42,970 bases of DNA, taken from Candidatus Woesearchaeota archaeon. Lineage in GTDB: Archaea; Nanobdellota; Nanobdellia; SCGC-AAA011-G17; ARS1403. How positions within the stretch are numbered: the first letter of the stretch is position 1; each line of letters opens with the position of its first letter. The notes under the pieces were generated by a model. The model was given only the letters and a program-made list of their open reading frames with translations, did not search any database and was not told where the DNA came from. A program made the position numbers and the translations under genes. The stretch spans positions 1-42,970 of the forward strand of contig JAGVZL010000011.1 of assembly GCA_018302505.1 (NCBI GenBank), given 5' to 3'. Positions 6,721 through 27,707 of this stretch are shown here, in pieces.

Positions 6721-7401
6721 CTATTTAAAAAAAGCATTATTTTCTCTTTCTTCTTTTACAGTTGTGCAGGGGCCATGTCCCGGAAAAATAAATAAATCTT
6801 CATCTAAATTTAAAATTCTTTTAGCACTTTCTAACAATTTTTCATAAGAATAGCTTCCGCCGCCTAAACTACCTGCAAAAATTAAGTCTCCAACAAACAA
6901 AAATTTACCAATCCGATAAGTTAAAGATTCTTTGCTGTGTCCAGGAGTCTTAAAAACTTTAATATCTCTAAAATTTTCTATATCTCCCACTTCAATATCG
7001 AACTCTTCTTCAATCTTCTCAATCCCTCCAACATGGTCGTAATGTTCATGAGTTTTCAAGACAGCTTTAACATTTAATTTTTCTTTCTTAACAAATCCAA
7101 TTATTTTTTCAGCAGCTTGAGCTGTGTCGATAATAGCACAATTCTTATCTTCATCAATTATAATATAAGCATTAACCTCCCCATCCATAAAAGGAGATGA
7201 AATCTTAACAACCCTCAATCCATTATAAGTTTTAGAATAATCAAATTTCTTAGGTTTATATTTTCCTTCTTTGATATTTTTTAAGGCTTTAAAATTTAAA
7301 CTCAATTCTTTAGCAGCTCCTTCGATATCACTAGAATTAATTTTCTTATTCAACCCTCTAGAAGCTTTACCGATAATATCTTCATAATTATCTTCCAGCA
7401 T
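6721..7401 (-). CDS. MBL-fold metallo-hydrolase (glyoxalase II-like)
   Basis: It has the HxHxDH motif LKTHEHYDHVGG, then TPGHSKES, FVGDLIF and FPGHGP. Confidence 0.7.
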   Translation of the reverse strand: MLEDNYEDIIGKASRGLNKKINSSDIEGAAKELSLNFKALKNIKEGKYKPKKFDYSKTYNGLRVVKISSPFMDGEVNAYIIIDEDKNCAIIDTAQAAEKIIGFVKKEKLNVKAVLKTHEHYDHVGGIEKIEEEFDIEVGDIENFRDIKVFKTPGHSKESLTYRIGKFLFVGDLIFAGSLGGGSYSYEKLLESAKRILNLDEDLFIFPGHGPCTTVKEERENNAFFK

Positions 7402-7402
7402 T

Positions 7403-8260
7403 TTAAAAGTTTAAAGCTCTTAATCTCTTGCACCTTTCTTTATAATCTGGATGTGTTGAAAATAAATTAACAAATGCTCTTCCAGCACCTCTGAACGGAC
7501 TAATAATCATCAAATGGTTTGTTGCATCAGTCCCAAACATCAAAGGATGGCTTTTATTACCTTCATGTAGCTTCTCCAAAGCTTTAGCCAAACTTTCTCC
7601 ATTCATTACTAATTTAGCACCTGTTGAGTCAGCGATATATTCTCTTGATCTTGAAATCGCTAATTGAATTACTGTAGCAGCTATCGGAGCTAATATACCT
7701 AAAGCGATTAAACCGATTATATTATTTCCATGATTCTCTCTATTCCCTCCACCGCCAAACATAGCTCCCCATCTAGCCATAAATGCAACATAAGAAATAA
7801 CAGCGGCAATAGTAGCAGCTATTGAAGAAATCAACATATCTCTGTTTTTAATATGCGCAACTTCATGTGCTATAACCCCCTTTAATTCATCTTTGCTTAA
7901 TAATTTTAAAATTCCTTGGGTAACAGCAACAACAGACCTTTTATAACTTGGTCCAGTAGCGAAGGCATTTGGATTCTCGCTTGGAACTATGTAAACTTTA
8001 GGTTTTGGAATATTTGCTGCATAAGCTACTTCCTCAACAATATTATGTAATTCAGCATAATCTTCTTTTTTAGCCTCTTTAGCCCTATACATTAATAAAA
8101 CTAATTTATGGGAAAAGAATAAGCTTCCAATGTTCATTAAAATTGCAAAAATAAAAGCAACAGTCAAACCAGATCTTCCACCAATTAAGCTTCCTATAAC
8201 TAATAAAATGCCTGTTAAAGCTCCTAACAATAGAACTGTTTTAATTTGATTTCCAATCAT
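7403..8260 (-). CDS. htpX: Membrane zinc protease HtpX (M48 family)
   Basis: It has the HEVAHIKNRD motif, multiple TM segments, and the C-terminus FSTHPDYKERCKRL typical of HtpX. Confidence 0.85.
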   Translation of the reverse strand: MIGNQIKTVLLLGALTGILLVIGSLIGGRSGLTVAFIFAILMNIGSLFFSHKLVLLMYRAKEAKKEDYAELHNIVEEVAYAANIPKPKVYIVPSENPNAFATGPSYKRSVVAVTQGILKLLSKDELKGVIAHEVAHIKNRDMLISSIAATIAAVISYVAFMARWGAMFGGGGNRENHGNNIIGLIALGILAPIAATVIQLAISRSREYIADSTGAKLVMNGESLAKALEKLHEGNKSHPLMFGTDATNHLMIISPFRGAGRAFVNLFSTHPDYKERCKRLRALNF

Positions 8261-8693: not shown

Positions 8694-10007
8694 ATGGTTT
8701 ACAATGTAATAGTAGGAAGGGATAAGGAAGACAGAGAGAAATACGGAGAAAGAGGTTTAATTTTATTAGGGAAAACTTATGTTAAAATGGGAAGAAATGT
8801 TTCTTTGTCTAATCCATTATTTTTAGATATTGCAAAAAGTCATGTTATCCTTGTAACTGGCAAAAGAGGTTCAGGAAAGAGTCACAGTCTCGGAGTTATA
8901 GCAGAATCAATAGCGAATCTACCTGAAGAAACAAAACAAAAAGTTTCAGTTATAATTTTAGATACAATGGGAATCTTTTGGTCTATGAAATTCCCAAACG
9001 AAAGGGATGCTAAATTATTGAAACAATGGAACCTAGAACCAAAAGCTTTAGAAGATGTTCAAATTTATACTCCCGAAGGTTATTTTAATGATCATAAACA
9101 GCAGGGAATTCCTGTAGATTTTCCTTTTTCAATAAGGCCAAATACATTAACAGCTTCAGATTGGGTAACAACTTTTAATTTAGATGTTCATTCTCAGGCT
9201 TCAATTTTAATTACTAGAGTTTTAAAAAAATTAATGGGAAATTATTCTTTGCACGACATAATAATGGAAGTTGAATCTGATCAAAAAGCAACTATAGAAA
9301 CAAAAAATTTAGTTGAAAGTCTATTTGAAGCGACAATGGCTTGGGGTTTATTTTCAGAAGAAGGGGAATTATTTGAAAACTTGGCCAAACCAGGAAAAAT
9401 TTCTATAATTGATATTAGCTGCTATTCCTCAGTTTCAGGAAGCTGGAGCATTAAAAGTTTAGTAGCTGGATTAGTTGCTCAAAAATTATTGCAGCAGAGA
9501 ATGATGGAAAGAAAAAAAGAAGAACTAAAAGAAATTAAACAGGGATTTTCACCATTTAAAAAAATAAAAAATATTTCTAAATTACCTCAGACTTGGTTAA
9601 TTATAGACGAATGTCACCAAATGCTCCCCAAGGATAAAATTACGCCAGCAACTAACGCTTTAATTTCTTTATTAAGAGAAGGAAGACAGCCTGGAATTTC
9701 AATGATATTAGCAACCCAGCAGCCTGGAAAAATTCACGATGATGTTATAACCCAATCAGATATAGTTTTATCCCATCGCTTAACAGCAAAACAAGATATA
9801 GATGCATTAAATGAAATGATGCAGAGCTATATGCAACAAGGATTGACTGATGAAATAAATCAACTGCCTAGAGAAACAGGAGCAGGAATTATATTGGATG
9901 ATACTTCTGAAAGAATCTATCCTTTAAGAGTCAGACCGAAATTATCCTGGCACGCTGGTTCTTCTCCATCTGCAGTTGAAGAGATAAAGAAAGAAATAGA
10001 AATTTAA
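8694..10007 (+). CDS. HerA/FtsK-superfamily P-loop ATPase (DUF87/COG0433-like)
   Basis: Walker A is VTGKRGSGKSHSLG and Walker B is WLIIDECHQMLP. The downstream ATQQPGKIHDDVITQSDIVLSHRL resembles the HerA sensor/arginine-finger region. Confidence 0.65.
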   Translation: MVYNVIVGRDKEDREKYGERGLILLGKTYVKMGRNVSLSNPLFLDIAKSHVILVTGKRGSGKSHSLGVIAESIANLPEETKQKVSVIILDTMGIFWSMKFPNERDAKLLKQWNLEPKALEDVQIYTPEGYFNDHKQQGIPVDFPFSIRPNTLTASDWVTTFNLDVHSQASILITRVLKKLMGNYSLHDIIMEVESDQKATIETKNLVESLFEATMAWGLFSEEGELFENLAKPGKISIIDISCYSSVSGSWSIKSLVAGLVAQKLLQQRMMERKKEELKEIKQGFSPFKKIKNISKLPQTWLIIDECHQMLPKDKITPATNALISLLREGRQPGISMILATQQPGKIHDDVITQSDIVLSHRLTAKQDIDALNEMMQSYMQQGLTDEINQLPRETGAGIILDDTSERIYPLRVRPKLSWHAGSSPSAVEEIKKEIEI

Positions 10008-11727: not shown

Positions 11728-12777
11728 TTAAATCAATGACCAAACATGGTTAGGAGTACAAACCTCAATTTTCTTGCCAATTATCTTAACTTTTTTACCT
11801 TCAAGTCTCTTTAAGTGATATCTAATTGTACTACGATGCTTCTTTGTATCTTTTGATATTTCATTTATAGTTTTAGGATTATTTTTTAAAGAAGAAAATA
11901 TTTCTTTTTTAGTTTTGTCTCCATCAAATGCATCTCTTGTAAAAGAACTTAATGCTTCTTCTAATTTTATTCTTTTTCTTTTAATAATAAATCCTATATA
12001 TTTATTATATAGGTTAAGATCTTTCCTACTTATAATTCTCAATAAGAACATTCCGGTAGATTTATCTCTGCCATATTGTTTAATACACGAATTAATACCA
12101 ATTCTACCTAATAAACTTTTCAAAGTTAAGACACTTCTCCCATACATCCTTAAATCGATCCTTTTTTTATTCCACTTCTTATCATATACCATACAACCTT
12201 CAGAATCGAAAATACCTTTCAAAAAAGAAACAATAATCTCCTTTCTGTTAGATTTTAAAATTCTATTAGGAACATTCCAGGAATAAGTTCTTGTATCAAT
12301 CTTATTTGCTAAAAACTCTACTATTTGTACCGAACCAAGTCTTACAACATATTGATCTTTTTTAGTTTCAATCCAGTTATCATATTTAGATTTGTGTTTG
12401 TAGCCATTAACTTTTCTTACATTCATTGTAGGATTTAAACCAGACCATTTCTTTAAAACATTAGAAAAGTTTAAAGCAAAGTCTTTATCCGAAACATTAA
12501 TTCCTATCCTACCTCCTTTCTTATCAATATGTCCATCCCCTATTAATACACCATAAATATAAGCTAACTCTTTAGACAATTTTTTTGATTTCTCAGGAAG
12601 CTTTCTTTGTCTATTTTTCATTGAGACATAATAGGGTTTAACATTTGTATTTGCCCAATACCAAATACTAGTAGGATTAACACCTGTTATCTCTGATATC
12701 TTATTTTGACTTAATCCTTTCTTTTTCAATTCCAACACTTTGTTATAATCTTCCATAGTATATACTTTCTTAATCAT
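11728..12777 (-). CDS. Free-standing LAGLIDADG homing-endonuclease-like protein flanked by N- and C-terminal HTH/wHTH domains
   Basis: It has two LAGLIDADG motifs, LAYIYGVLIGDGHI and IVSFLKGIFDSEGCM. The N-terminal HTH is KKGLSQNKISEITGVNPTSIWYW. The C-terminal wHTH is TINEISKDTKKHRSTIRYHLKRLEG. No intein splicing blocks are present. Confidence 0.7.
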   Translation of the reverse strand: MIKKVYTMEDYNKVLELKKKGLSQNKISEITGVNPTSIWYWANTNVKPYYVSMKNRQRKLPEKSKKLSKELAYIYGVLIGDGHIDKKGGRIGINVSDKDFALNFSNVLKKWSGLNPTMNVRKVNGYKHKSKYDNWIETKKDQYVVRLGSVQIVEFLANKIDTRTYSWNVPNRILKSNRKEIIVSFLKGIFDSEGCMVYDKKWNKKRIDLRMYGRSVLTLKSLLGRIGINSCIKQYGRDKSTGMFLLRIISRKDLNLYNKYIGFIIKRKRIKLEEALSSFTRDAFDGDKTKKEIFSSLKNNPKTINEISKDTKKHRSTIRYHLKRLEGKKVKIIGKKIEVCTPNHVWSLI

Positions 12778-18524: not shown

Positions 18525-19001
18525 ATGAAAAGTTATGATTTGGAAAGGAGTATCGGAAGAGATTTAACTATTTTAGCAACAGCAGGATTATATTCTTTAA
18601 GTGCCATTGGGTGCGGGAATGGTCCTGAAGAAAGAGGAGATTTATGGTTTGATGAATCTATCGATGGGGTAAGAGTTGCATATTTTAATGATCCTGATAG
18701 GATGGAAATATATGGACCAAAAGGAGACTTAGTTGAAATCATAGAAGATGATGGCAACGACGAAGTTGGTGACGATTCAGATGATAGATACACCATTTTC
18801 TTAAAAGATGGCAGGTCAAGGACATATGCAGAAAATTATTTTATTGACGAAAGAGGCATTGAATTTAAAGAAGGAGAAGATGCTATCGCAAACAATCTAG
18901 TACAATATTCAAGAGGCGTACTTAAAACAGTAACAGGAAAATATAGAGGATTAAAATCAAAAATATCTAGTATATTAACAAGAAAGTGCACCACTAAATA
19001 A
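18525..19001 (+). CDS. Small acidic putative lipoprotein
   Basis: It has a hydrophobic stretch LTILATAGLYSLSAIGCGNG with a lipobox-like AIGC. Its stop codon lies inside the duplicated fen 3'-end fragment. Confidence 0.45.
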   Translation: MKSYDLERSIGRDLTILATAGLYSLSAIGCGNGPEERGDLWFDESIDGVRVAYFNDPDRMEIYGPKGDLVEIIEDDGNDEVGDDSDDRYTIFLKDGRSRTYAENYFIDERGIEFKEGEDAIANNLVQYSRGVLKTVTGKYRGLKSKISSILTRKCTTK

Positions 19002-19059
19002 ATTCTCCCAAACCTTTCTGACCTTTATTTTTATCTTTTTTCTTTAATTTATCTAAAAT
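18994..19059. repeat. Direct repeat copy 1 (66 nt): displaced duplicate of the fen 3' end including the stop codon
   Basis: It is identical to 20422-20490 except for a 3-nt deletion (the final Lys codon). On the minus strand it reads ...LDKLKKKDKNKGQKGLGEFI*. Confidence 0.9.
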
Positions 19060-20370
19060 TTATTCTAACAGCCATTTCCAAAGAGGAATAAACTTAATAT
19101 TTTTATTCTCAACTTTTTCTTCTTTTTCATAATTTTCATTTAGAACAATTAGATTATTACATCTTAATTCTTTACTACATTTCAATAAGGCTTTCAACTC
19201 TCTTTCTTTAGTTTTAATATCCTCCAAATTATAACAAACTTGAATTAGTTGCTTTACCTTTAAACCTTCTTTCAAAACAAAATCAACTTCCTCATGCTTA
19301 ATATTTTTCCAATAATACATTTCAATATTAGCATTTTCCATTATCTCTTTCTTTAATTCAATTGCAACAATATTTTCATACAGATTTCCAATATTAGAGC
19401 TGAATTTAAATCCAATAGCATTAGACAAACCAGTATCAATAGAATAAACTTTCCTTGGTGATTTTTCTTGTTCCTTAATTTTAAAAGAAAAAGATTTTAT
19501 AAAAAAGAGTAGATTATTTTTTTCAAAATAAGAAGAAAATTTTTCTATTGTATCTGTACTCAATTCTAGATATTTTTTCAAAGAGTTAAAAGTAATAAGA
19601 TTGGAAATATTTGTTAAATAGAATTTAGCCAAAGCTCTTAGTTTTTCTCCTTCTCTAATCTTATATCTTTTTTCTATATCTTCTGTTAAAATATCATCAA
19701 AATAAGTTAACAGTAAAATTTTTTTTTCTTCGTTTAAAACAATTTCAGGAAATCCTCCAAATTCTAAATATTCTTTTAATAATTTTTTAATTTCTAATTT
19801 TTTTGACACTAAATCTAATTTATTTTTTATTTCTAATCCTTTAAAACAAATAAATTCTTTAAAACTTAATGGAAACACGTTTATATCTAAGTGTCTGCCG
19901 GTTAAGACAGTAGCTAATTCTCCAGACATTAATTCAGAAGAAGATCCAGACACAATTATTTTTGCTTTATTTAATTCATGCATGGTCCTTGCCCACTTTT
20001 CCCATTTAGGTATTTTATGGATTTCATCTAAAAAAATATAAGGTTTGTCCTTAGGATTTAAATTTTCCACATAAGTTTCATAAATCTTATCTAAGAGATC
20101 TAAATTAAATTTGGTAAATCTTCCATCTTCAAAGTTTATTATTAAAATACTGTTTTTTTCTATCTTTCCAGCTATTAATTTTTTTGCTAATTGTCTCATT
20201 AAATAAGATTTTCCAGATCTTCTAACGCCTATGAAAGAAAGGATAACATTGGGCTTAAGAAATTTCAAAGCCGATTTAAGATATTCTTCTCTTTCATAAC
20301 CAGACTTTAATTCTTTTCTCCAGAGATTCCAATCTTCCAAAATTTCCAGTATTTGATTTTTGTCTATCAT
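19060..20370 (-). CDS. AAA+ ATPase of the COG1373 type (AAA_14 plus DUF4143-like C-terminal domain)
   Basis: Walker A is GVRRSGKSYLMRQL and Walker B is IFLDEIHKIPKWEKW, followed by IIVSGSSSELMSGELATVLTGRHLDINVFPLSFKEF. Hand-counted GC is about 18%. Confidence 0.8.
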   Translation of the reverse strand: MIDKNQILEILEDWNLWRKELKSGYEREEYLKSALKFLKPNVILSFIGVRRSGKSYLMRQLAKKLIAGKIEKNSILIINFEDGRFTKFNLDLLDKIYETYVENLNPKDKPYIFLDEIHKIPKWEKWARTMHELNKAKIIVSGSSSELMSGELATVLTGRHLDINVFPLSFKEFICFKGLEIKNKLDLVSKKLEIKKLLKEYLEFGGFPEIVLNEEKKILLLTYFDDILTEDIEKRYKIREGEKLRALAKFYLTNISNLITFNSLKKYLELSTDTIEKFSSYFEKNNLLFFIKSFSFKIKEQEKSPRKVYSIDTGLSNAIGFKFSSNIGNLYENIVAIELKKEIMENANIEMYYWKNIKHEEVDFVLKEGLKVKQLIQVCYNLEDIKTKERELKALLKCSKELRCNNLIVLNENYEKEEKVENKNIKFIPLWKWLLE

Positions 20371-20421
20371 ATTAGATAAAATTTACTATTTTTATAGAGT
20401 ATATTAGATATATAAACTTAT

Positions 20422-20490
20422 CTATTTAATAAATTCTCCCAAACCTTTCTGACCTTTATTTTTATCTTTTTTCTTTAATTTATCTAAAAT
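20422..20490. repeat. Direct repeat copy 2 (69 nt): the functional 3' end of fen
   Basis: See copy 1. The offset between the copies is 1431 nt. Confidence 0.9.
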
Positions 20491-21438
20491 ATTCTGAACT
20501 CTTTCCTCTCCAAACTCATGTCTTTCAACTAAGATCTCTTTTACTTTACCTTCATCAACATCGCTCCATTTTAATTGGTATTCTTTCATTACAGGCATCG
20601 ACTTAAAAATAGCATAAACTTTCTTCCAGTTGAATTCAGCTTTAACTTCTTTAAATAAAGTATCAAAATTATTAAATTGTTTAACTAAATTCAAAGCTTT
20701 CTTAGGACCAATTCCAACAACACCCTTAGGATTATAATCAGTTCCAGTTAAAATTCCCATCACAATTAACTTATCCCTGTCAACTCCTAAATGATTTAAA
20801 ACATCATGCAGCTCAATTATCTGAGGCTGGATATACACATAACCTTTCCCGGCTTTTCTAGTCTGAGATAAAGTTAAATTAGGTATTAATCTCGGACAGC
20901 CATGCAATAAACAATCCATGTCTGAACTAGCTGCAAAATCTACATCTCCCTTCTCACATAAGAAACTAATTTGTGCATCACTTTCTTGTGGGGCCTGTAT
21001 AACTGGAATTCCCATAGCTTTCAATAGTTCTTTAGTTTCTTTAGTCATATCATTATTCAAATAAGTAACCTGTTTAGAATATTTACCCATAGATTCTTCA
21101 TCATCCTCTTCTTTGGCAATTTCATATTTTTCATATGCTTTTTCCTTTCTCTCTCTCCTCTTTCTCTGAGTTTCATATTTTAATGAAGGCGGTTTGCCAT
21201 CAAAACACACACACGGAAGTATTCCTTTCTGCATTAAGTTTGATATCCTATAGAATGTACCTGAAAGATGCGAAGTTACATTTCCATTAGAATCCATCAA
21301 AGGGGTCCCATCACGTTGGCGAATAGAGCTAAGGAATTGGTACAACATATTAGATGCATCTATTGCAATCCTTTTTCCTTTTAAATCTTCCCAAGAAATA
21401 ATCTTTACGGGAAGTATACCTGGTAATTTAACACCCAT
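20422..21438 (-). CDS. fen: Flap endonuclease 1
   Basis: The sequence reads MGVKLPGIL...GKRIAIDASNMLYQFLSSIRQRDGTPLMDSNGNVTSHLSGTFYR...CFDGKPP and GIGPKKAL, with a C-terminal PIP-like QKGLGEFI. Confidence 0.9.
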   Translation of the reverse strand: MGVKLPGILPVKIISWEDLKGKRIAIDASNMLYQFLSSIRQRDGTPLMDSNGNVTSHLSGTFYRISNLMQKGILPCVCFDGKPPSLKYETQRKRRERKEKAYEKYEIAKEEDDEESMGKYSKQVTYLNNDMTKETKELLKAMGIPVIQAPQESDAQISFLCEKGDVDFAASSDMDCLLHGCPRLIPNLTLSQTRKAGKGYVYIQPQIIELHDVLNHLGVDRDKLIVMGILTGTDYNPKGVVGIGPKKALNLVKQFNNFDTLFKEVKAEFNWKKVYAIFKSMPVMKEYQLKWSDVDEGKVKEILVERHEFGEERVQNILDKLKKKDKNKGQKGLGEFIK

Positions 21439-21440
21439 CC

Positions 21441-21611
21441 TTAGTCGGTTGGTAATTTTATTTTTACTGATTTGTCAGTATAAACTATAAAAAAACCATT
21501 TCCCTCCTTCACAAATAATGTATCATTTTCTTTTATATTTAGGTTTTTTCTAATCTCTTCAGGGATAGTTATCCTTCCACGTTCATCAGCTTTTATAGTA
21601 GTTAGTGACAT
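21441..21611 (-). CDS. AbrB/SpoVT-family small DNA-binding protein (MazE-like), not in the ORF track (56 aa)
   Basis: The ORF reads MSLTTIKADERGRITIPEEIRKNLNIKENDTLFVKEGNGFFIVYTDKSVKIKLPTD, with the classic RGRITIPxEIRxxLxIxxGD pattern. Its stop is 2 nt before the fen ATG. Confidence 0.65.
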   Translation of the reverse strand: MSLTTIKADERGRITIPEEIRKNLNIKENDTLFVKEGNGFFIVYTDKSVKIKLPTD

Positions 21612-21634
21612 ATCTATATTCTAATATGGAAAAG

Positions 21635-21642
21635 TTTATATA
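21635..21642. promoter_or_regulatory. Shared TATA-like box midway between divergent genes
   Basis: TTTATATA is centred at 21638.5. That is 27 nt from the abrB-like ATG (21611) and 29 nt from the ATG at 21668. Confidence 0.4.
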
Positions 21643-21667
21643 CCTTTTTATCCCTTAAAAGGGTATA

Positions 21668-23146
21668 ATGGGTAAGATTAAATTAAATAAAAGGTCGAGT
21701 TTAACATTTAAGAAATTAAATAAGTTATATCAAAAAGTAAAACAAGAGACTAACAACTTTAAGGAATTTAAACAAGAATTAATAATAAAAAACCCAGAGT
21801 CTGTAAGACTATTTAGAATAATGATTGGAAAGGGGTTGGTAGAATTTTCTAGACTTCTTAATAAGTCAGCTTCCACAATTCAATCTTTAGAAGAAAAAAG
21901 ATGGAATATAAGAATACAAACAGCTAAAAAATATATTGATATTATAAAAAATTTAAATAAAAAATATATTTTTTCAAGTATTCCCTATGAAACAATTAAA
22001 TATAACTATGAAAATTTTTATACAAGCAGATTTTTTTCTCGTATTTCAAAGAGAGTTCCCTATGAAAAACGTGTAAGAAAAGGAAAAATTGGAGGGAAAG
22101 CGACTTTAAAGAAGTACGGAAGAAATTATTTTGTTAATTTAGCAAAAAAGGGTGCTAGCCTAGGTGGAATTGCAGTTAGCAAAAAATATCCACATGAGCA
22201 CTATCAAAAAATAGGGAAGATGACAGGAGAAATTCATGGTAGAGAAAAATTAAGTGAATGGGGCAAAAGAGGAGGAATAACAACAGCATCTAAACAAAAA
22301 TTAACTGAGCAAGAAGAATTAATCAAAAAAAGATTAGATAAAAACAAAATCAAAAATATAACCCATCATAAAGTAGAAGGACATAATAAATATTACGTTG
22401 TGGATTTTCTGGTTAAACACAATAATTTAGATATTTATATAGAAGCTACAGCAGTACATGGAAAAAAATCTAGCTCATATCCTTATTCAAAATCTCTTGA
22501 TTTAATAAAGAGAATCCAATCAATCAGATTAAAAAATAATAAATGCAAATTCCTATGTATAATTAGTTCAAAATTTTCAGTAGAAGGCATGATAAAACTT
22601 TCCCAATATGCAGATTGTGTTTTATTAGATAATCATCTTAATAAACTACCATTCATAATTAATAAAATAAATCACAAAACTTATTTAAAGAATATTACAA
22701 AAATTGGACTTAATAGTATATTAAAAAGAAAAATAATGTTCAAAAATGGAGGAATAGCTACTAAAGATTTGAATATAAATAAAAGTGAAACTAAAGTAAT
22801 AAACTTTCTAAATAGAAACAAAATCAAATTTTCAACTCAATCTATTTTAGAAAGTAAATTCGGCACCATTTCTATTGTAGATTTTATCTTAACTTCTACT
22901 AGAGATCTAAAATTAATTATAGAAGTAACTAGCATAAATGGAAAAAGTAAAAAAGCACTTCCCAGAACAATTAATAAAATGGAATCAAGATTATCCATGT
23001 TAAAAGAGTTTTATATTAAAGAAGCAAATCTTGTAGGCCTAATAGATAATGTTAGTCAAAAAGAAATTAATAAATATAACCCAAAGTTTAAACTAATTAG
23101 TATGAACAATTTCATATCAAACATTAAAAATATTTATTCAAATTAA
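21668..23146 (+). CDS. HTH protein with basic KGG-like repeats and two tandem Vsr/DUF559-like (PD-(D/E)XK-fold) endonuclease modules
   Basis: The XRE-like HTH is LVEFSRLLNKSASTIQSLEEKRWN. The repeats are RKGKIGGKATLKKYGRNYF, AKKGASLGGIAVSKKY and SEWGKRGGITTASKQ. The two nuclease-like modules are YYVVDFLVKHNNLDIYIEATAVHGK and ISIVDFILTSTRDLKLIIEVTSINGK. GC is ~13-20% in sampled stretches. Confidence 0.45.
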   Translation: MGKIKLNKRSSLTFKKLNKLYQKVKQETNNFKEFKQELIIKNPESVRLFRIMIGKGLVEFSRLLNKSASTIQSLEEKRWNIRIQTAKKYIDIIKNLNKKYIFSSIPYETIKYNYENFYTSRFFSRISKRVPYEKRVRKGKIGGKATLKKYGRNYFVNLAKKGASLGGIAVSKKYPHEHYQKIGKMTGEIHGREKLSEWGKRGGITTASKQKLTEQEELIKKRLDKNKIKNITHHKVEGHNKYYVVDFLVKHNNLDIYIEATAVHGKKSSSYPYSKSLDLIKRIQSIRLKNNKCKFLCIISSKFSVEGMIKLSQYADCVLLDNHLNKLPFIINKINHKTYLKNITKIGLNSILKRKIMFKNGGIATKDLNINKSETKVINFLNRNKIKFSTQSILESKFGTISIVDFILTSTRDLKLIIEVTSINGKSKKALPRTINKMESRLSMLKEFYIKEANLVGLIDNVSQKEINKYNPKFKLISMNNFISNIKNIYSN

Positions 23147-23488
23147 ATGATACAAAAAATACTAACTTTAGACGGATCTAGTAAATTTTTAGAGGTTTTA
23201 GGAGATTCTCCAAGAAATAGAATTCTAGATTTTTTATTAGGGGAAATTAACTATGATTTCACATTAAAAGAAATTGCAAATAAAAGTAATGTAGGTTATG
23301 CAACGATAAAAAGAACTTGGCATTATTTTATTGGAGCAGAATTAGTTAAGAAGACTAGAAAGGTTGGGAAAGCCGTATTTTACACTTATAATACTGAAAG
23401 TAGAGAAGGAAAAGCACTAAGAAAATTTTACTTAGAAATTATTTTTAATGAAGTAGAAAAGGAAATTCCGCAAAAAATTACAGCTTAA
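23147..23488 (+). CDS. Winged-helix transcriptional regulator
   Basis: The sequence is PRNRILDFLLGEINYDFTLKEIANKSNVGYATIKRTWHYFIGAELVKKTRKVGKAVFY. The ATG directly abuts the upstream TAA. Confidence 0.55.
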   Translation: MIQKILTLDGSSKFLEVLGDSPRNRILDFLLGEINYDFTLKEIANKSNVGYATIKRTWHYFIGAELVKKTRKVGKAVFYTYNTESREGKALRKFYLEIIFNEVEKEIPQKITA

Positions 23489-23533: not shown

Positions 23534-24190
23534 ATGGTGATAAGAACTTTCTCATTTGACCACAAAGGCGGCTTTTATCAATATAGAGTTCATACCGTAA
23601 AATTAAATAACTTTTGTAAAGGAATATTATTTCCATTAAAGAATTATCTAGAGTCCATCTTTAACTCCTGTCCTAATGATTATTTTCAAAAAGGACCTAG
23701 GTCTTCATCTTTAAAATTTAATCTATCCAATATAAACCTGCAAAATGCTCCAAAACATGAATTATGTTTATTAACACATTATGGTTTAGAACAAAATAGT
23801 AATAGATATTCATCCGCACATTCTAAAGTTCAGGTATTTATGTTAGAGCATGATAAAACTTCAATCGCCTGCGAAACTCCAATATGGCTGTTGCCCGAGG
23901 AGTTAGAATTATATAAAGAGGTTTTCAATTCTAAAGAAGTATTAACAGGACATATTGATATATTAAGAATACAGGATAATAAGATTTGGATTTTAGATTA
24001 CAAACCCAATGCGTCAAAAGAAAAATACGCATCAACTCAAGTTTATTTTTATGCTTTAATGTTAAGCAAAAGAACAGGAATTCCTTTGGAATATTTTAGA
24101 TGTGGTTATTTTGATAATTTAAACTGTTATTTATTTAAACCTGAAGATTGTTCTTTGCCTCAATTAAAATCAATACAGGAATTTATTTAG
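23534..24190 (+). CDS. PD-(D/E)XK nuclease, RecB/Cas4-like
   Basis: The motif order is GHIDILRI (D), WILDYKPN (D-x-K), then STQVYFYALML (QxxxY). Three Cys lie near the C-terminus (FRCGYFDNLNCYLFKPEDC). Confidence 0.6.
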   Translation: MVIRTFSFDHKGGFYQYRVHTVKLNNFCKGILFPLKNYLESIFNSCPNDYFQKGPRSSSLKFNLSNINLQNAPKHELCLLTHYGLEQNSNRYSSAHSKVQVFMLEHDKTSIACETPIWLLPEELELYKEVFNSKEVLTGHIDILRIQDNKIWILDYKPNASKEKYASTQVYFYALMLSKRTGIPLEYFRCGYFDNLNCYLFKPEDCSLPQLKSIQEFI

Positions 24191-27100
24191 AAAAACTATT
24201 CAGATCTACTTGGGTACTGCCTTCTAACAATTCATCTAAAGTAATATTAAAGAAAATTAAAACAGCATTAGCAATAGGTTTTATCTGCTTGTCAATATAA
24301 TGTTTATAATCTAATTTATGTTTCTGATTTTGAATAGGTTCAGGTCCGTCTTCAGTTATAACATACTCAATAACACTACCTTTGAAATTTTTAAGTTTTT
24401 TTGCCGCCTTAACATGTTGAGCATTCATAGCATAATCTTCTAAATTCTTTCTTATTTGTTTTCTATAAACTAAATCTTTGTCATGTCTTCCATCTTTTAC
24501 TTCTTCAATTAATTTTTTAATATAACTCTTAACTTCTTTTTTATGGAATAATCTATCTAATAATTCCATCTGGAATTTTTTTGCTAATTCAGTCCAGTCC
24601 CCCCTAATAGCTTCCATCCCAGTTATTTCAATTTTACCTTTAGAATTCAACCCTGCATATCTTTTTTTTGCACCAGTCTCGCTTCCTCTTACTCTAGGCA
24701 TTAAAAACCTGACAAAGCATTTTTCATATTCTAATTCTAGATGATTATTTCTATTATACTCTTTCTTAACATAACTCTCAAAGAATTTATTTAATTTAAT
24801 ATTTAATTCATTTCCAATTTTCTCCGCCTCTTCTAAATTTTCAGCTTTGCTTAAAACAAAAACCGAATCAGTATTGTGAAGTAGAATATTACCACAAGCA
24901 TCCACAAACGTCTTGTTTTTATCCACAGATAAGTCGTATAAATAATCTTCATAATGGATTTCTTCTATATTAGTTTTTATTCTCGAATTATTTTTATTTG
25001 AAGTTGTAATTGTATAATTACTCTTTTCTTTCCTATATCTGATACTATAATTAAATCTAAGCTGGGTTAATAATGTAGATAAATCCGAAGTTAAACCTAG
25101 TGAATTTGTGCAATAAGAAAAATGCTTTAATTTATATTGTTCAGAATATCTCTTATCCTTTGATTTTCTACTTCCATCTCCTTCAATCATTGTATCTAAT
25201 AAAATTTTTTTATACTTTTCATCTACATGGAACATAAAATAAGGAACTCTTTTTCCATTACTATTTTGTCCAGCCAGTGATTTAAAGAAAACAGCAGAAA
25301 GAATATTCATTAGTTGTAGTTTTTGTGTTTTATCAACATAACTAATATTTTTCTCTGTTTCACCATTAAAATATTTTAATTCTCTAATTTTTTTAGTAGA
25401 AACTATGATAGACACATCCACATTATCAAATAATTTATAATAATCTTCCTTTAGAGATTTTAACCAATTTACATTAGAAGAAGAAATTGAAGCACCCAAT
25501 CTAGATTTTGTTGTTTCCGGAGTTGAAGAAGACCCTTCTGCAATGTATGCTCCAACCAATCTGCATAAAGACTCAAATTCTTTTGATTTAATATCAATAA
25601 ATCTTTTTACCCTTACAGATTTTTTTCTATTTGTCCATCCGAACCACACCCATTTATCATCACAATGAGCCTTCGCAGTTTTTATCCTTCCTTTATAAGT
25701 AACTTTATAACTATAATTTTTTAAATATTCATAAATATCAATTTTAACTATTTTAGGTAAGTCTGGGATCTTAACAATTTTGAATAAGGGTCTTTTTTCA
25801 ATCTCCAAGGGCCTTACTTCTTTTAATTTATTATCTTCAAAAATAATTAATGAATGATCTTCTGAGCAGATTGTTTCTCCATATTTTTGATTTACTCTAA
25901 AAACTTTCTTATTTGTCTTATGTCTTATGATTTCATTAAGTTTAGAAAATTCAGGCTCAAGAGTTTCTTTATTTACTGTTAGAGCAAGAACATTCTCTTT
26001 TCTTAAGTCTATTCTTTCTTTTTTACCAATTATAACCTTCTTTGATATAAATTTTTTAAATAACTCTTCCATACTAATTATCAACAATTTTCCATTAACT
26101 ATCAATGTTGTGAACCGATCTTTGGTTATACTATCTGAATAAATAACTTCATAACCCTCCTCTTCAACTTTTTCAGCTGTTAATTTTATCATCTTCTGAC
26201 CAAAATGAGTAATTGCATTAGCAACGTCTAAAGAAAAAAATCTGCAATTAGCATTAGCCAAAACACCAAAAAAACTATTTAATAAAATTTTAATTGCATG
26301 TCTTTGTAATTCATTTTTCTCTTTTTTAGCCTTGTCTCTTGATTTTAATAATCTTTCAACTAAAACACCCATTACTCCATTTTGATTCTTAAAACAGGCT
26401 CCATTAGGTGCTTTAATTAAATTCTTACCATTGCAATTTTCAACATAACTAAGTGGATCAATATTAAATGTTCTCATCAAACTAGGATAAAGGCTTTTGA
26501 AATCTAAAACTAATAAATAATCATAAATCCCAGGTTTAGATTCCATAACATAACCGCCCTTAATTCTCTCCTCTTTTGGAGTATAGTGACCGGAATTAGC
26601 AACATAACCTCTCTTATTCAATTCCCTTAAATACAAAGAATCTAAAGAAGCAATGGAAGCATTTACCCTGTCTAATGGCATCCCTGTTAAGATGCTTCTT
26701 TCAATAGTCATCTCAATTATCTTAGTTTTTTTTAATATCTCTGTAACTAACCTTGCATCATTCAAATTATATTTAGCTAATTTTTTCTTATCTTCTCTAA
26801 ACAGCCTATCAATTTCTTCACCTTTGCCTTCTATATAAGAAATTAATTTACCTTCTTTTAAAATAGATTGAGCAGCATCTTCCAATTTATAACTATCCAA
26901 GTCGACAAAACTCATTCTTAATAACTGAATTCCATCCAAAACAACTCTTCCAGGAAAATCAGCTTTAGAATCCCTAAAAAAATCTTTCTCAATTCTAATT
27001 TTACATGTTTCGTTTGTTCTTCCCAAAACAAAAGAGATTCTATGTTCTTTAAATTTATTTTTCAAATATTCTAAATCAAAATCAATTAAATTCCATCCTG

Positions 27101-27707
27101 TTATAATATCTGGATCCTCTTCTAAAATTATCTTTTTGAATTCTTCCAACATCTCTTCTTCATCCATATCAATTAAAACTTTCTCAAATCCTTCAGAATA
27201 AATTGCAATGCTGTATAATTTTTTACCGTTTGAACTCGTTTCAATATCTACTGAAAATATTTTTAGATTATTAGGAAAATACTCTATTGGTTTTATCTCA
27301 GCGTCCCTGTAAATTCTGTTAATAAAATCACTTGTTTCATAGTCACCATCTATTTCAACACCCATCATTATTTCTTTATCCATTAAATACCGATAAGCAA
27401 ATCTAATATCTGCTTCATAGCATTCAATTCCGTCTTCCTCAAAACTTCTTCTTAAACCAGGAACATCTTTCGGAGTTTCTAGAATAACTCTTGATAATTT
27501 TTCATCATTGAAACTTTTGAAATCACTATTTTCAATCTTAAAATCCCCATTACCAGCTTTTTTAACATCTTTAGTTTTAATATAAAAATAAGGTTCATAG
27601 AAATTCATAACTAAAAAACTCTCTCCATTCTCTAATTTTCCAAACAAAAAAACATAACTTTTCCCATCTATTATCTTATAGCTTGGGTAAAGTATAAAAC
27701 CTTTCAT
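24183..27707 (-). CDS. polB: Family B DNA polymerase containing one intein
   Basis: The exonuclease motifs are FSVDIET, NLIDFDLEYL and YNLNDARL. The polymerase motifs are DFKSLYPSLM, KILLNSFFGV and a split motif C, VIYSD|...|TDSVFV. Confidence 0.9.
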   Translation of the reverse strand: MKGFILYPSYKIIDGKSYVFLFGKLENGESFLVMNFYEPYFYIKTKDVKKAGNGDFKIENSDFKSFNDEKLSRVILETPKDVPGLRRSFEEDGIECYEADIRFAYRYLMDKEIMMGVEIDGDYETSDFINRIYRDAEIKPIEYFPNNLKIFSVDIETSSNGKKLYSIAIYSEGFEKVLIDMDEEEMLEEFKKIILEEDPDIITGWNLIDFDLEYLKNKFKEHRISFVLGRTNETCKIRIEKDFFRDSKADFPGRVVLDGIQLLRMSFVDLDSYKLEDAAQSILKEGKLISYIEGKGEEIDRLFREDKKKLAKYNLNDARLVTEILKKTKIIEMTIERSILTGMPLDRVNASIASLDSLYLRELNKRGYVANSGHYTPKEERIKGGYVMESKPGIYDYLLVLDFKSLYPSLMRTFNIDPLSYVENCNGKNLIKAPNGACFKNQNGVMGVLVERLLKSRDKAKKEKNELQRHAIKILLNSFFGVLANANCRFFSLDVANAITHFGQKMIKLTAEKVEEEGYEVIYSDSITKDRFTTLIVNGKLLIISMEELFKKFISKKVIIGKKERIDLRKENVLALTVNKETLEPEFSKLNEIIRHKTNKKVFRVNQKYGETICSEDHSLIIFEDNKLKEVRPLEIEKRPLFKIVKIPDLPKIVKIDIYEYLKNYSYKVTYKGRIKTAKAHCDDKWVWFGWTNRKKSVRVKRFIDIKSKEFESLCRLVGAYIAEGSSSTPETTKSRLGASISSSNVNWLKSLKEDYYKLFDNVDVSIIVSTKKIRELKYFNGETEKNISYVDKTQKLQLMNILSAVFFKSLAGQNSNGKRVPYFMFHVDEKYKKILLDTMIEGDGSRKSKDKRYSEQYKLKHFSYCTNSLGLTSDLSTLLTQLRFNYSIRYRKEKSNYTITTSNKNNSRIKTNIEEIHYEDYLYDLSVDKNKTFVDACGNILLHNTDSVFVLSKAENLEEAEKIGNELNIKLNKFFESYVKKEYNRNNHLELEYEKCFVRFLMPRVRGSETGAKKRYAGLNSKGKIEITGMEAIRGDWTELAKKFQMELLDRLFHKKEVKSYIKKLIEEVKDGRHDKDLVYRKQIRKNLEDYAMNAQHVKAAKKLKNFKGSVIEYVITEDGPEPIQNQKHKLDYKHYIDKQIKPIANAVLIFFNITLDELLEGSTQVDLNSFSK
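24873..26132 (-). mobile_element. 420-aa intein with LAGLIDADG endonuclease domain in polB motif C (pol-c type site)
   Basis: It starts with Ser (SITKDRF...) after YSD and ends ...FVDACGNILLHN before TDSVFV. Block B is CSEDHSLI. The LAGLIDADG blocks are LVGAYIAEGSS and LLDTMIEGDGS. Excision restores YSDTDS. Confidence 0.85.

Follow-up and report, generated by a model that had tools for sequence, protein, structure and literature searches.

We describe a small gene cassette that has entered the 3' end of fen, the gene for flap endonuclease 1, in a stretch of 42,970 nucleotides from a Candidatus Woesearchaeota archaeon (contig JAGVZL010000011.1), which was analyzed over its whole length and is called the window below. 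The cassette consists of one ATPase gene with a short upstream region, and it is flanked by two copies of the fen 3' end. Duplicating insertions of this kind recur with other cargo at fen, as well as at other target genes, and they are accompanied by no recombinase, no terminal inverted repeats and no sequence core common to the duplications. As a tentative reading, held with somewhat less than even confidence, we favor a recombinase-independent, target-duplicating insertion of a minimal cassette that arrived by horizontal transfer, with selection in a compact genome deciding which insertions survive; the enzymology and the selective filter in this reading are what we infer. The parts of the locus, by position in the window, are as follows.

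18525 to 19001, plus strand: convergent open reading frame (ORF) of 158 amino acids (aa), from the ORF call, with its last codons and stop (18999-19001) inside the relic that follows.
18994 to 19072, minus strand: distal relic of the fen 3' end, from repeat comparison, exact over 18997-19059, with a stop at 18994-18996.
19025 to 19046, plus strand: oligo-T tract in the sequence (TTTATTTTTATCTTTTTTCTTT), 3' of the 158-aa ORF and antisense to the lysine-rich tail of fen.
19060 to 20370, minus strand: cargo ATPase of 436 aa (Pfam AAA_14 and DUF4143), with an NTPase, a winged-helix middle and a C-terminal DUF4143.
20371 to 20427, minus strand: left end of the cassette, AAATAG (the extra lysine codon and stop of fen) and then a conserved putative promoter motif, GTTTATATATCTAATATACTCTATAAAAATAG.
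20428 to 20490, minus strand: proximal, functional repeat copy, from repeat comparison, encoding ILDKLKKKDKNKGQKGLGEFI, with the alignment reaching about 20495.
20422 to 21438, minus strand: fen (flap endonuclease 1), 338 aa, ending in QKGLGEFIK and a stop (Pfam XPG_N and XPG_I).

The two copies form an exact direct repeat of 63 nucleotides (nt; 18997-19059 and 20428-20490), which a gapped alignment extends to 70 nt at 97% identity (18997-19066 against 20428-20495). At the side away from the stop codon the homology runs on imperfectly, so that the last codons and stop of the ATPase lie within an extended fen-derived relic (imperfect extension 19060-19072). Translated from the minus strand, the two copies give the same residues, ILDKLKKKDKNKGQKGLGEFI; the proximal copy is followed by AAA TAG (lysine, stop) and gives the true end of fen, GEFIK with a stop at 20422-20424, the distal copy passes directly into TAG and ends in GEFI with a stop at 18994-18996, and a 3-nt indel separates the two. 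No other comparable direct repeats occur in the window, except for those internal to the CDC48 gene (two AAA modules). Between the copies there is only the 436-aa ORF (19060-20370, minus strand) and 57 nt of upstream sequence with two TATA-like boxes (about 20408-20418 and about 20387-20398, the latter being CTATAAAAATA), so that the ATPase gene with its promoter region of about 57 nt makes up a cassette of 1368 nt. The motif GTTTATATATCTAATATACTCTATAAAAATAG is also present upstream of homologous ATPase genes at L105, L107, L112, L134 and L103 (L-numbers denote loci fetched for comparison), and to judge from the sequence it would act as a promoter. An earlier note on this DNA was thus right about a near-identical direct repeat, differing by a 3-nt deletion, that brackets the end of fen (now with an exact 63-nt core), about a single gene between the copies whose stop abuts the repeat at 19060, and about a TATA-like box of the cassette's own (about 20387-20398, within a motif conserved in homologous cassettes). 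Its figures for base composition, 18% GC in the cassette against 32% in fen, did not hold: measured over the whole cassette GC is 24.1%, against 33.0% in fen and 30.8% in the window, and neighboring regions are equally low (25.3% in the block 21441-23488). fen has 4979 homologues at E ≤ 1e-40, the nearest named ones in metagenome-assembled genomes of Nanoarchaeota and Woesearchaeota, and its C-terminal tail holds a putative PIP-type motif (Q-x-x-L-x-x-F-I), a reading based on archaeal FEN-1.

The state before the insertion is seen in six species representatives without the cassette (L016-L018 and L020-L022; FEN 61-75% identical), all of which keep the gene order CDC48-M24-PolB-PDDEXK-fen wholly or partly and none of which has an ATPase at fen. 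The gene after fen is convergent in five of the six, with 3' ends that overlap by 4 nt (L016, L020 and L021) or 8 nt (L018), or that lie 5 nt apart (L017); the comparison of orthologous fen loci proposed in the earlier note therefore yields relatives in which fen abuts the next gene and no ATPase is present. In the window, the stop of the convergent 158-aa ORF lies 8 nt into the distal copy, and a relic that holds this stop sits in the ancestral context of overlapping 3' ends. The distal copy is thus the fen end that was there from the start, still in its ancestral setting, and upstream of it the cassette has been placed together with a new fen end. Oligo-T tracts are used in archaeal transcription termination, and by analogy the tract at 19025-19046 is a candidate terminator of the 158-aa gene. 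As a separate observation, the fen frame of the relic (18994-19059) is in frame with the ATPase ORF, one TAA apart (19057-19062), and read-through of the ATPase stop would extend the ATPase by the lysine-rich tail of FEN with its PIP-type motif. In another lineage described below (L085) the last relic is, in its 5' part, likewise in frame with the ATPase there, the relic of a third lineage (L019) is out of frame, and the arrangement could be due to chance.

fen, the ATPase gene and the 158-aa ORF stand in the same order, with both repeat copies, in 15 of 15 fetched contigs (L001-L015), which belong to NCBI, JGI and ENA assemblies of groundwater metagenomes and whose names indicate different pipelines; many contigs of such assemblies encode exactly these FEN and ATPase proteins. 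Single-nucleotide polymorphisms (SNPs) confined to the distal copy were found in three of them (A>G in L005 and L013, T>A in L010). Two further contigs (L103 and L104) encode FEN without its last lysine (337 aa), the product that precise excision is predicted to leave. They were considered as an empty site or excision product and ruled out, as both carry a degraded cassette: the promoter is 84-86% identical, an internal deletion cuts the ATPase to 38 codons, and the relic of L104 is strongly decayed by frameshifts and stops. Their fen ends in GEFI-TAA followed by AAATAG, which makes the lysine extension in the window the result of a later loss of 3 nt. The existence of such degraded and diverged haplotypes also implies that the insertion is old within the species complex, and no empty site within the species itself was present among the contigs examined. 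The perfect identity of the two copies is therefore no evidence of recency, and it is best explained by gene conversion, to which two observations point. A cluster of 10 SNPs at 20494-20602 (L007, L012, L014 and L015) ends at the repeat edge, where its divergence of about 9% predicts 5-6 differences inside the repeat, and a T/A variant that L103 and L104 have in the proximal copy recurs in the distal copy of L010.

Cassettes homologous to that of the window, which share its promoter motif and encode proteins 69-82% identical to its ATPase, were found at three unrelated loci; duplicated local sequence flanks each of them, and more distant relatives occupy two further contexts.

L105/L106: ATPase 82% identical; duplication of about 107 nt, copies 83-88% identical.
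L107/L108/L111: ATPase 75% identical; duplication of 23 nt, with the downstream copy in the 3' end of a convergent gene.
L134: ATPase 69% identical; duplication of 44 nt, 95% identical, with the right copy holding the stop of a convergent gene.
L135 and L137: ATPase 63-66% identical; no flanking duplication detected.

The duplication in L105 covers the overlapping stop and start of two neighboring genes and about 35 first codons of the downstream one, its left copy being a pseudo-start and its right copy functional, and the cassette of L134 carries an additional ORF of 120 aa. At the DNA level, the cassettes of the window, L105, L107, L112 and L134 are similar from about 60 nt upstream of the ATG to just past the Leu-Leu codons. 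The same boundary is seen in the proteins: 120 ATPase homologues are conserved up to PLWKWLL and then end in unrelated tails of 0-26 residues, which fits an ORF that reads out into any flanking sequence. A search for further COG1373 copies with duplicated ends, which the earlier note had suggested for the rest of the genome, was positive among the fetched loci at three other sites and negative at L135 and L137. A resemblance between the right end of the L105 cassette and the junction of fen tail and cassette left end in the window (shuffle p = 0.03) is too weak for the former to be used as a remnant of earlier residence at fen. In L137, L138 and L139, contigs from the same groundwater samples, two tandem AAA_14+DUF4143 ATPase genes and a PIN toxin pair are embedded in a cluster of gas-vesicle genes (GvpO, an AAA_5 GvpN-like protein, PadR and Gas_vesicle proteins); around these genes we detected no flanking duplication.

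The end of fen, in turn, has received other cargo. In 83 further fen loci, with flanks of at most 8 kb, we looked for a second occurrence of the 3' end of the resident fen, both as DNA and as protein, and three lineages had a duplicated fen 3' end.

L019: FEN 74% identical; an ATPase_2+DUF234 gene (PADLOC PDC-S27); relic of 66 nt, 89% identical, reading KVLEKLKKKDKGKEQKGLGDFI and a stop.
L072: FEN 49% identical; a 73-aa protein and a PIN (VapC-like) toxin; relic of about 40 nt that runs across the stop codon.
L085 (L086 is of the same lineage): FEN 49% identical; three modules in a row, with a fen relic behind each.

The L019 ATPase has no BLASTP similarity to that of the window; its functional fen ends in FIK through AAATAG, and its relic in FI. 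The modules of L085 comprise an unknown protein with a nucleotidyltransferase, a winged-helix protein with a DUF6036 nucleotidyltransferase, and an AAA_14+DUF4143 ATPase that is 32% identical to the window's. The identity of their relics to fen drops with distance (89%, 85% and 63-67%), as expected from successive insertions into the live fen end, and the last relic adjoins a convergent membrane-protein gene. The relics at fen are about 40 to 96 nt long, and in L065 an AAA_14 ATPase gene is convergent on the fen stop at a contig end. The earlier note had held that unrelated content between copies of the same repeat would speak against a cassette, and unrelated content is what L019, L072 and L085 carry; the duplication is then to be read as a general mode of entry and the fen 3' end as a recurrent site, rather than as absence of a cassette. 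The 3' end of fen is a recurrent accessory-gene site in these archaea. Two other features of the L085 locus were noted. An element of 125 nt (7973-8097 and 9491-9615 of that contig, copies 94% identical) stands behind two of the three relics and can form a long hairpin with a 16-bp terminal stem (folding z-score -1.8, which is weak); it has no Rfam match, was found in the L085 lineage only, and is most plausibly either one portion of a target duplicated over about 190 nt or a miniature inverted-repeat element. Between the fen stop and the first module (6793-6887) there are two direct repeats of 40 nt, each with a palindrome, GTCTTAATACTTTTAAGAC, which are probably the operator of the adjacent toxin-antitoxin-like pair, and a similar sequence follows fen in L066.

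A blind scan for direct repeats over about 0.8 Mb of the fetched loci extended these observations to other genes, and every duplication that it returned spans the end of a flanking gene.

L032: ParE toxin pair; 87-nt duplication of a gene 3' end and terminator.
L032: MNT-HepT pair; 43-nt duplication.
L053: MazF pair; 79-nt duplication of the 3' end of a phosphatase gene.
L037: PIN pair; 28-nt duplication of the 3' end of polB.

Overall, the duplications range from 23 to about 107 nt, and no common core or motif was apparent among the 13 that were compared by eye. Duplication-flanked cassettes were present at the fen 3' end in 3 of 83 lineages and in about 4-7 cases at some 700 other gene boundaries of the same loci, a rough comparison given that the two scans differ in sensitivity.

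Searches for the machinery of a conventional mobile element were negative throughout. Neither an integrase nor a transposase is present in any cassette or up to 10 kb away; the sole ORF of the window cassette is the ATPase, in agreement with what the earlier note had stated, and in 14 contexts the Pfam calls over that distance include no integrase family. Integrase families were also absent from a Pfam scan of 134 ORFs downstream of fen, which lists only families hit by two or more of these ORFs and could miss a single integrase; a crude integrase motif screen near fen was negative, and none of the 83 fen loci, within the flanks given above, held a larger or integrase-bearing occupant. Five cassettes had no terminal inverted repeats, the similarity of their ends not exceeding that of shuffled sequences (p = 0.5-0.99). 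Hallmarks of integrons were likewise missing: there is no integrase, the 3' ends of the cassettes have no conserved imperfect palindrome, and what flanks them is copied from host genes. Among nine short contigs none had the overlapping ends of a circular form; several of them break within the conserved promoter motif, a sign of multiple related copies in the community and not of circles. An exact search of viral contigs found neither the fen tail nor the cassette promoter, and an ATPase profile search of viral contigs found relatives at no more than 33% identity.

The cargo protein matches Pfam AAA_14 (4.5e-34, 117.7 bits) and DUF4143 (3.2e-22, 79.4 bits), covering both domain models over their full length, as well as PADLOC PDC-S01 (5e-115, 382.6 bits), and it has thousands of relatives. 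The best Foldseek matches to its AlphaFold2 model (pLDDT 88) are CED-4, Apaf-1, Orc1/Cdc6 and the anti-phage STAND protein Avs5, at the level of domains (TM about 0.4), and no match was obtained among solved structures or in NCBIfam. DUF4143 and DUF234 have been placed in the PD-(D/E)XK nuclease superfamily (PMC3424549). Together, the domain matches, the model and this placement describe an NTPase switch that continues into a DNA-binding middle and a nuclease-like end, an architecture that, as modeled, would be compatible with a conflict system. PDC-S01 (AAA_14+DUF4143, COG1373) and PDC-S27 (ATPase_2+DUF234), which the window and L019 proteins match strongly, are families listed by PADLOC as candidates from genomic association, and a role of the ATPase in defense is suggested by this candidate label and by the toxin-antitoxin genes found as neighbors. 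The earlier note had described COG1373 as multi-copy and enriched in defense islands; the family is indeed very large and patchy, and its defense status is a candidate flag only. In the literature on DUF4143 and COG1373 we found nothing on how this ATPase family moves.

Several features of the surrounding genes were noted in addition. A variable block next to fen (21439-23486), which is absent in L008, L014 and L015, consists of a MazE/AbrB-like gene (21441-21611), a gene for a 492-aa protein and one for a 113-aa protein; without it, fen comes immediately after the PDDEXK gene, an order also seen in other species. In the same three contigs the first ~520 nt of fen (20917-21438) are about 30% diverged (FEN 88% identical) and the rest is about 99-100% identical, so that the 5' part of fen looks like an allele imported via homologous recombination from a diverged relative. 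The 492-aa protein (21668-23146, plus strand) is without a Pfam match, has two internal repeats about 474-480 nt apart and matches PADLOC PDC-M24B weakly (9.7e-5). An intein that is in part homing-endonuclease-like interrupts the gene for family B DNA polymerase (24183-27707, minus strand; Pfam DNA_pol_B and Intein_splicing; PADLOC 'HEase', 9e-39), and it is absent from PolB of L017, L018, L020 and L021 as judged by tblastn gaps. A free-standing 349-aa protein (11728-12777, minus strand) with LAGLIDADG_3 and HTH_5/HTH_24 domains may be a domesticated or free homing endonuclease.

In the reading that we favor, the ATPase gene and its promoter region of about 57 nt were inserted where the 3' ends of fen and of the convergent 158-aa gene overlap, with duplication of about 65-78 nt of the fen 3' end. 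The copy next to fen keeps that gene complete, its stop coming from the start of the cassette (as TAA in one haplotype and, after the loss of 3 nt, as AAA-TAG in the window). In the distal copy the 158-aa gene retains its stop, and probably its oligo-T terminator as well, while the remainder decays. The insertion event itself would make the duplication through host replication or repair, either by template switching, in which a broken or stalled replication end copies foreign DNA and resumes upstream on a sister genome copy, or by repair of staggered breaks, in which two genome copies broken at different positions are joined through the insert. Selection would then purge insertions that damage neighboring genes. 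Where convergent genes overlap and have their terminators inside one another, only a duplication that covers both stops and terminators would be harmless, and the survivors would be those that duplicate the shared gene end; such a filter would explain why the duplications are long (50-100 nt), variable and anchored at gene ends. Thereafter, gene conversion would keep the copies identical, and in some haplotypes the cassette has decayed. That the same cargo is found at unrelated sites, and unrelated cargo at fen, favors a target-derived duplication over a recombinase specific for fen.

A number of observations weigh against this reading. The inner edge of the duplication lies only 0-4 nt from the stop of the target gene in the window, L019, L053 and L037, which is expected of an element that brings a ready-made gene end and is less natural for a random stagger. 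The relic of L104 reads VEKVLDK at its 5' edge, like fen of the L019 lineage and unlike the resident VQNILDK, and this sequence hints at a donor-derived copy. The boundary counts given above suggest that fen is a preferred, albeit non-exclusive, site, and flanking duplications were not detected in two of six further ATPase contexts (L135 and L137). Microhomologies at the junctions (GTT(C)AGAAT at the right of the window cassette, AAAC at the left of L134) are short, 3-5 nt, and as such weak evidence in AT-rich DNA of about 31% GC (24% in the cassette). Moreover, neither a donor sequence, nor an intermediate, nor an enzyme has been identified.

The strongest alternative, possible but in our estimate rather less probable, is close to the one proposed in the earlier note: a circle with its own copy of a fen 3' end enters fen by a Campbell-type single crossover, through host homologous recombination or an integrase acting in trans, and recombination between the copies re-releases the circle, which would permit spread between related hosts. 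Integrated elements of Thaumarchaeota provide a precedent, with 14 of 68 targeting the 3'-distal parts of protein genes and bringing a new stop codon (PMC6563490), and the tandem array of L085 at one site resembles the re-use of attachment sites described there (PMC6563490). A circle better explains the duplication edge at the fen stop, with the stop supplied by cassette sequence, the re-use of fen, and the L104 relic edge that resembles a foreign fen allele; the weak similarity at the right end of L105 (p = 0.03) is what circular permutation predicts. Against it, the same cassette family is flanked by unrelated local duplications at three loci (about 107, 44 and 23 nt), which a circle could not have carried beforehand, so that these other target sites need an additional illegitimate step. 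In addition, no integrase is in or near any instance, overlapping ends are lacking in the nine short contigs, viral contigs hold neither fen tail nor cassette promoter, the 337-aa FEN occurs only beside a degraded cassette and not as a precise excision product, and the fen tails of the window and L019 are too different for homologous recombination between them. What stands of the earlier proposal is the footprint of an insertion, the minimal cassette and a fen gene kept whole; the unrelated duplications elsewhere and the variable fen relics do not agree with it. Both models could hold if a rare duplicative insertion creates the unit and recombination via its repeats or flanks spreads it among close relatives.

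It seems unlikely that small defense and toxin-antitoxin cassettes of DPANN archaea (including fusions of AAA+/STAND-like ATPases with PD-(D/E)XK-like domains) form a distinct mobile class, one without a recombinase of its own that duplicates tens to about a hundred target bases, perhaps helped by the nuclease domain of its cargo, and that prefers gene 3' ends (fen, polB), where arrays build. Still more doubtful is that the locus is the stump of a larger integrative element with a tyrosine recombinase at the fen 3' end, reduced to one cargo gene and the two copies of its attachment (att) site, which would make it an archaeal equivalent of a cis-mobilizable element. Decay is directly visible in L103 and L104, and the L085 array resembles the accretion at gene 3' ends of cis-mobilizable elements, which have lost integration and transfer genes and kept attL and attR (PMC5704250). 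Yet no larger or integrase-bearing version was seen at the 83 fen loci or in the other instances, every one of which is already minimal (1-3 genes, 0.7-1.9 kb), below the 2.6 kb of the smallest integrase-bearing archaeal element cited (PMC6563490). The cassette ends are tight, with the promoter right after the fen stop and the ORF running into the relic, and each homologous cassette elsewhere would need a different lost integrase. A tandem duplication of the junction of fen and the 158-aa gene by slippage, with the cassette landing between the copies later and by chance, is very improbable: duplications in tandem arise often, and a gene end present twice would offer a neutral landing pad, but the cargo always lies between the copies, no relic fragment is on the wrong side, and no cassette-free relative has a tandem duplication of the fen end. 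An assembly artefact can practically be dismissed as the source of the repeat, for although 63 nt is long enough to confuse de Bruijn assemblers and the contigs of the L019 lineage stop at its relic, the misassembly check of the earlier note, made here on contigs, refutes it through the agreement of 15 contigs from differing samples and pipelines, SNPs restricted to one copy, and diverged, degraded haplotypes with the same architecture.

Toxin-antitoxin and defense genes have been noted for their exceptional horizontal mobility (PMC2701414), most of them are chromosomal without the hallmark of a mobile element, and we found no account of their arrival in the literature. The footprint described here, a unit of promoter and gene, a long gene-end duplication and no recombinase, is repeatable and searchable genome-wide, and it may indicate the way in which these genes spread when no recombinase is in sight. 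If a dedicated mechanism is behind it, this would be a new kind of mobility; if it is illegitimate insertion filtered by selection, it would show how extremely compact genomes with overlapping genes take up new ones. Either reading marks the fen 3' end as a recurrent accessory-gene site in these archaea.

Among known systems, the integrated elements of Thaumarchaeota (cryptic elements, proviruses and casposons; PMC6563490) share with the fen cassettes the flanking direct repeats, an intact target whose stop is supplied by the insert, an empty site and tandem re-use. They differ in having their own integrase or casposase, a size of at least 2.6 kb and short sites fixed for each element, with attachment sites or target duplications mostly <25 bp (PMC6563490), whereas the fen cassettes have no recombinase, measure 0.7-1.9 kb and are flanked by duplications of 23 to about 107 nt that differ among homologous cassettes. 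The cis-mobilizable elements of Firmicutes (PMC5704250) are similar as integrase-less units between two copies of a gene 3' end, with arrays in tandem beside the intact gene; they are, however, decayed integrative and conjugative or integrative and mobilizable elements with intact relatives at the same site, and for the fen cassette no intact relative was found in 83 loci and the same cargo occurs with other duplications elsewhere. The locus thus has the footprint of an att-flanked element, with target-restoring repeats and an empty site in relatives, and departs from such elements in the lack of a recombinase, of an intact relative and of a shared core, as well as in its variable duplication length. 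Target-site duplications of transposons and casposons are likewise derived from the target and differ between sites, but the fen cassette is without transposase or terminal inverted repeats, and its duplications are several-fold longer and variable, against a fixed 2-15 bp. Microhomology-mediated template switching (of the type of fork stalling and template switching, FoSTeS, or microhomology-mediated break-induced replication, MMBIR) produces foreign insertions with variable flanking duplication and with neither sequence specificity nor a dedicated enzyme; to our knowledge, it has been described mainly in eukaryotic and bacterial rearrangements and not as a route of gene acquisition in archaea. 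The fen cassettes share with it a foreign insert, a variable flanking duplication and the lack of both sequence specificity and an associated enzyme.

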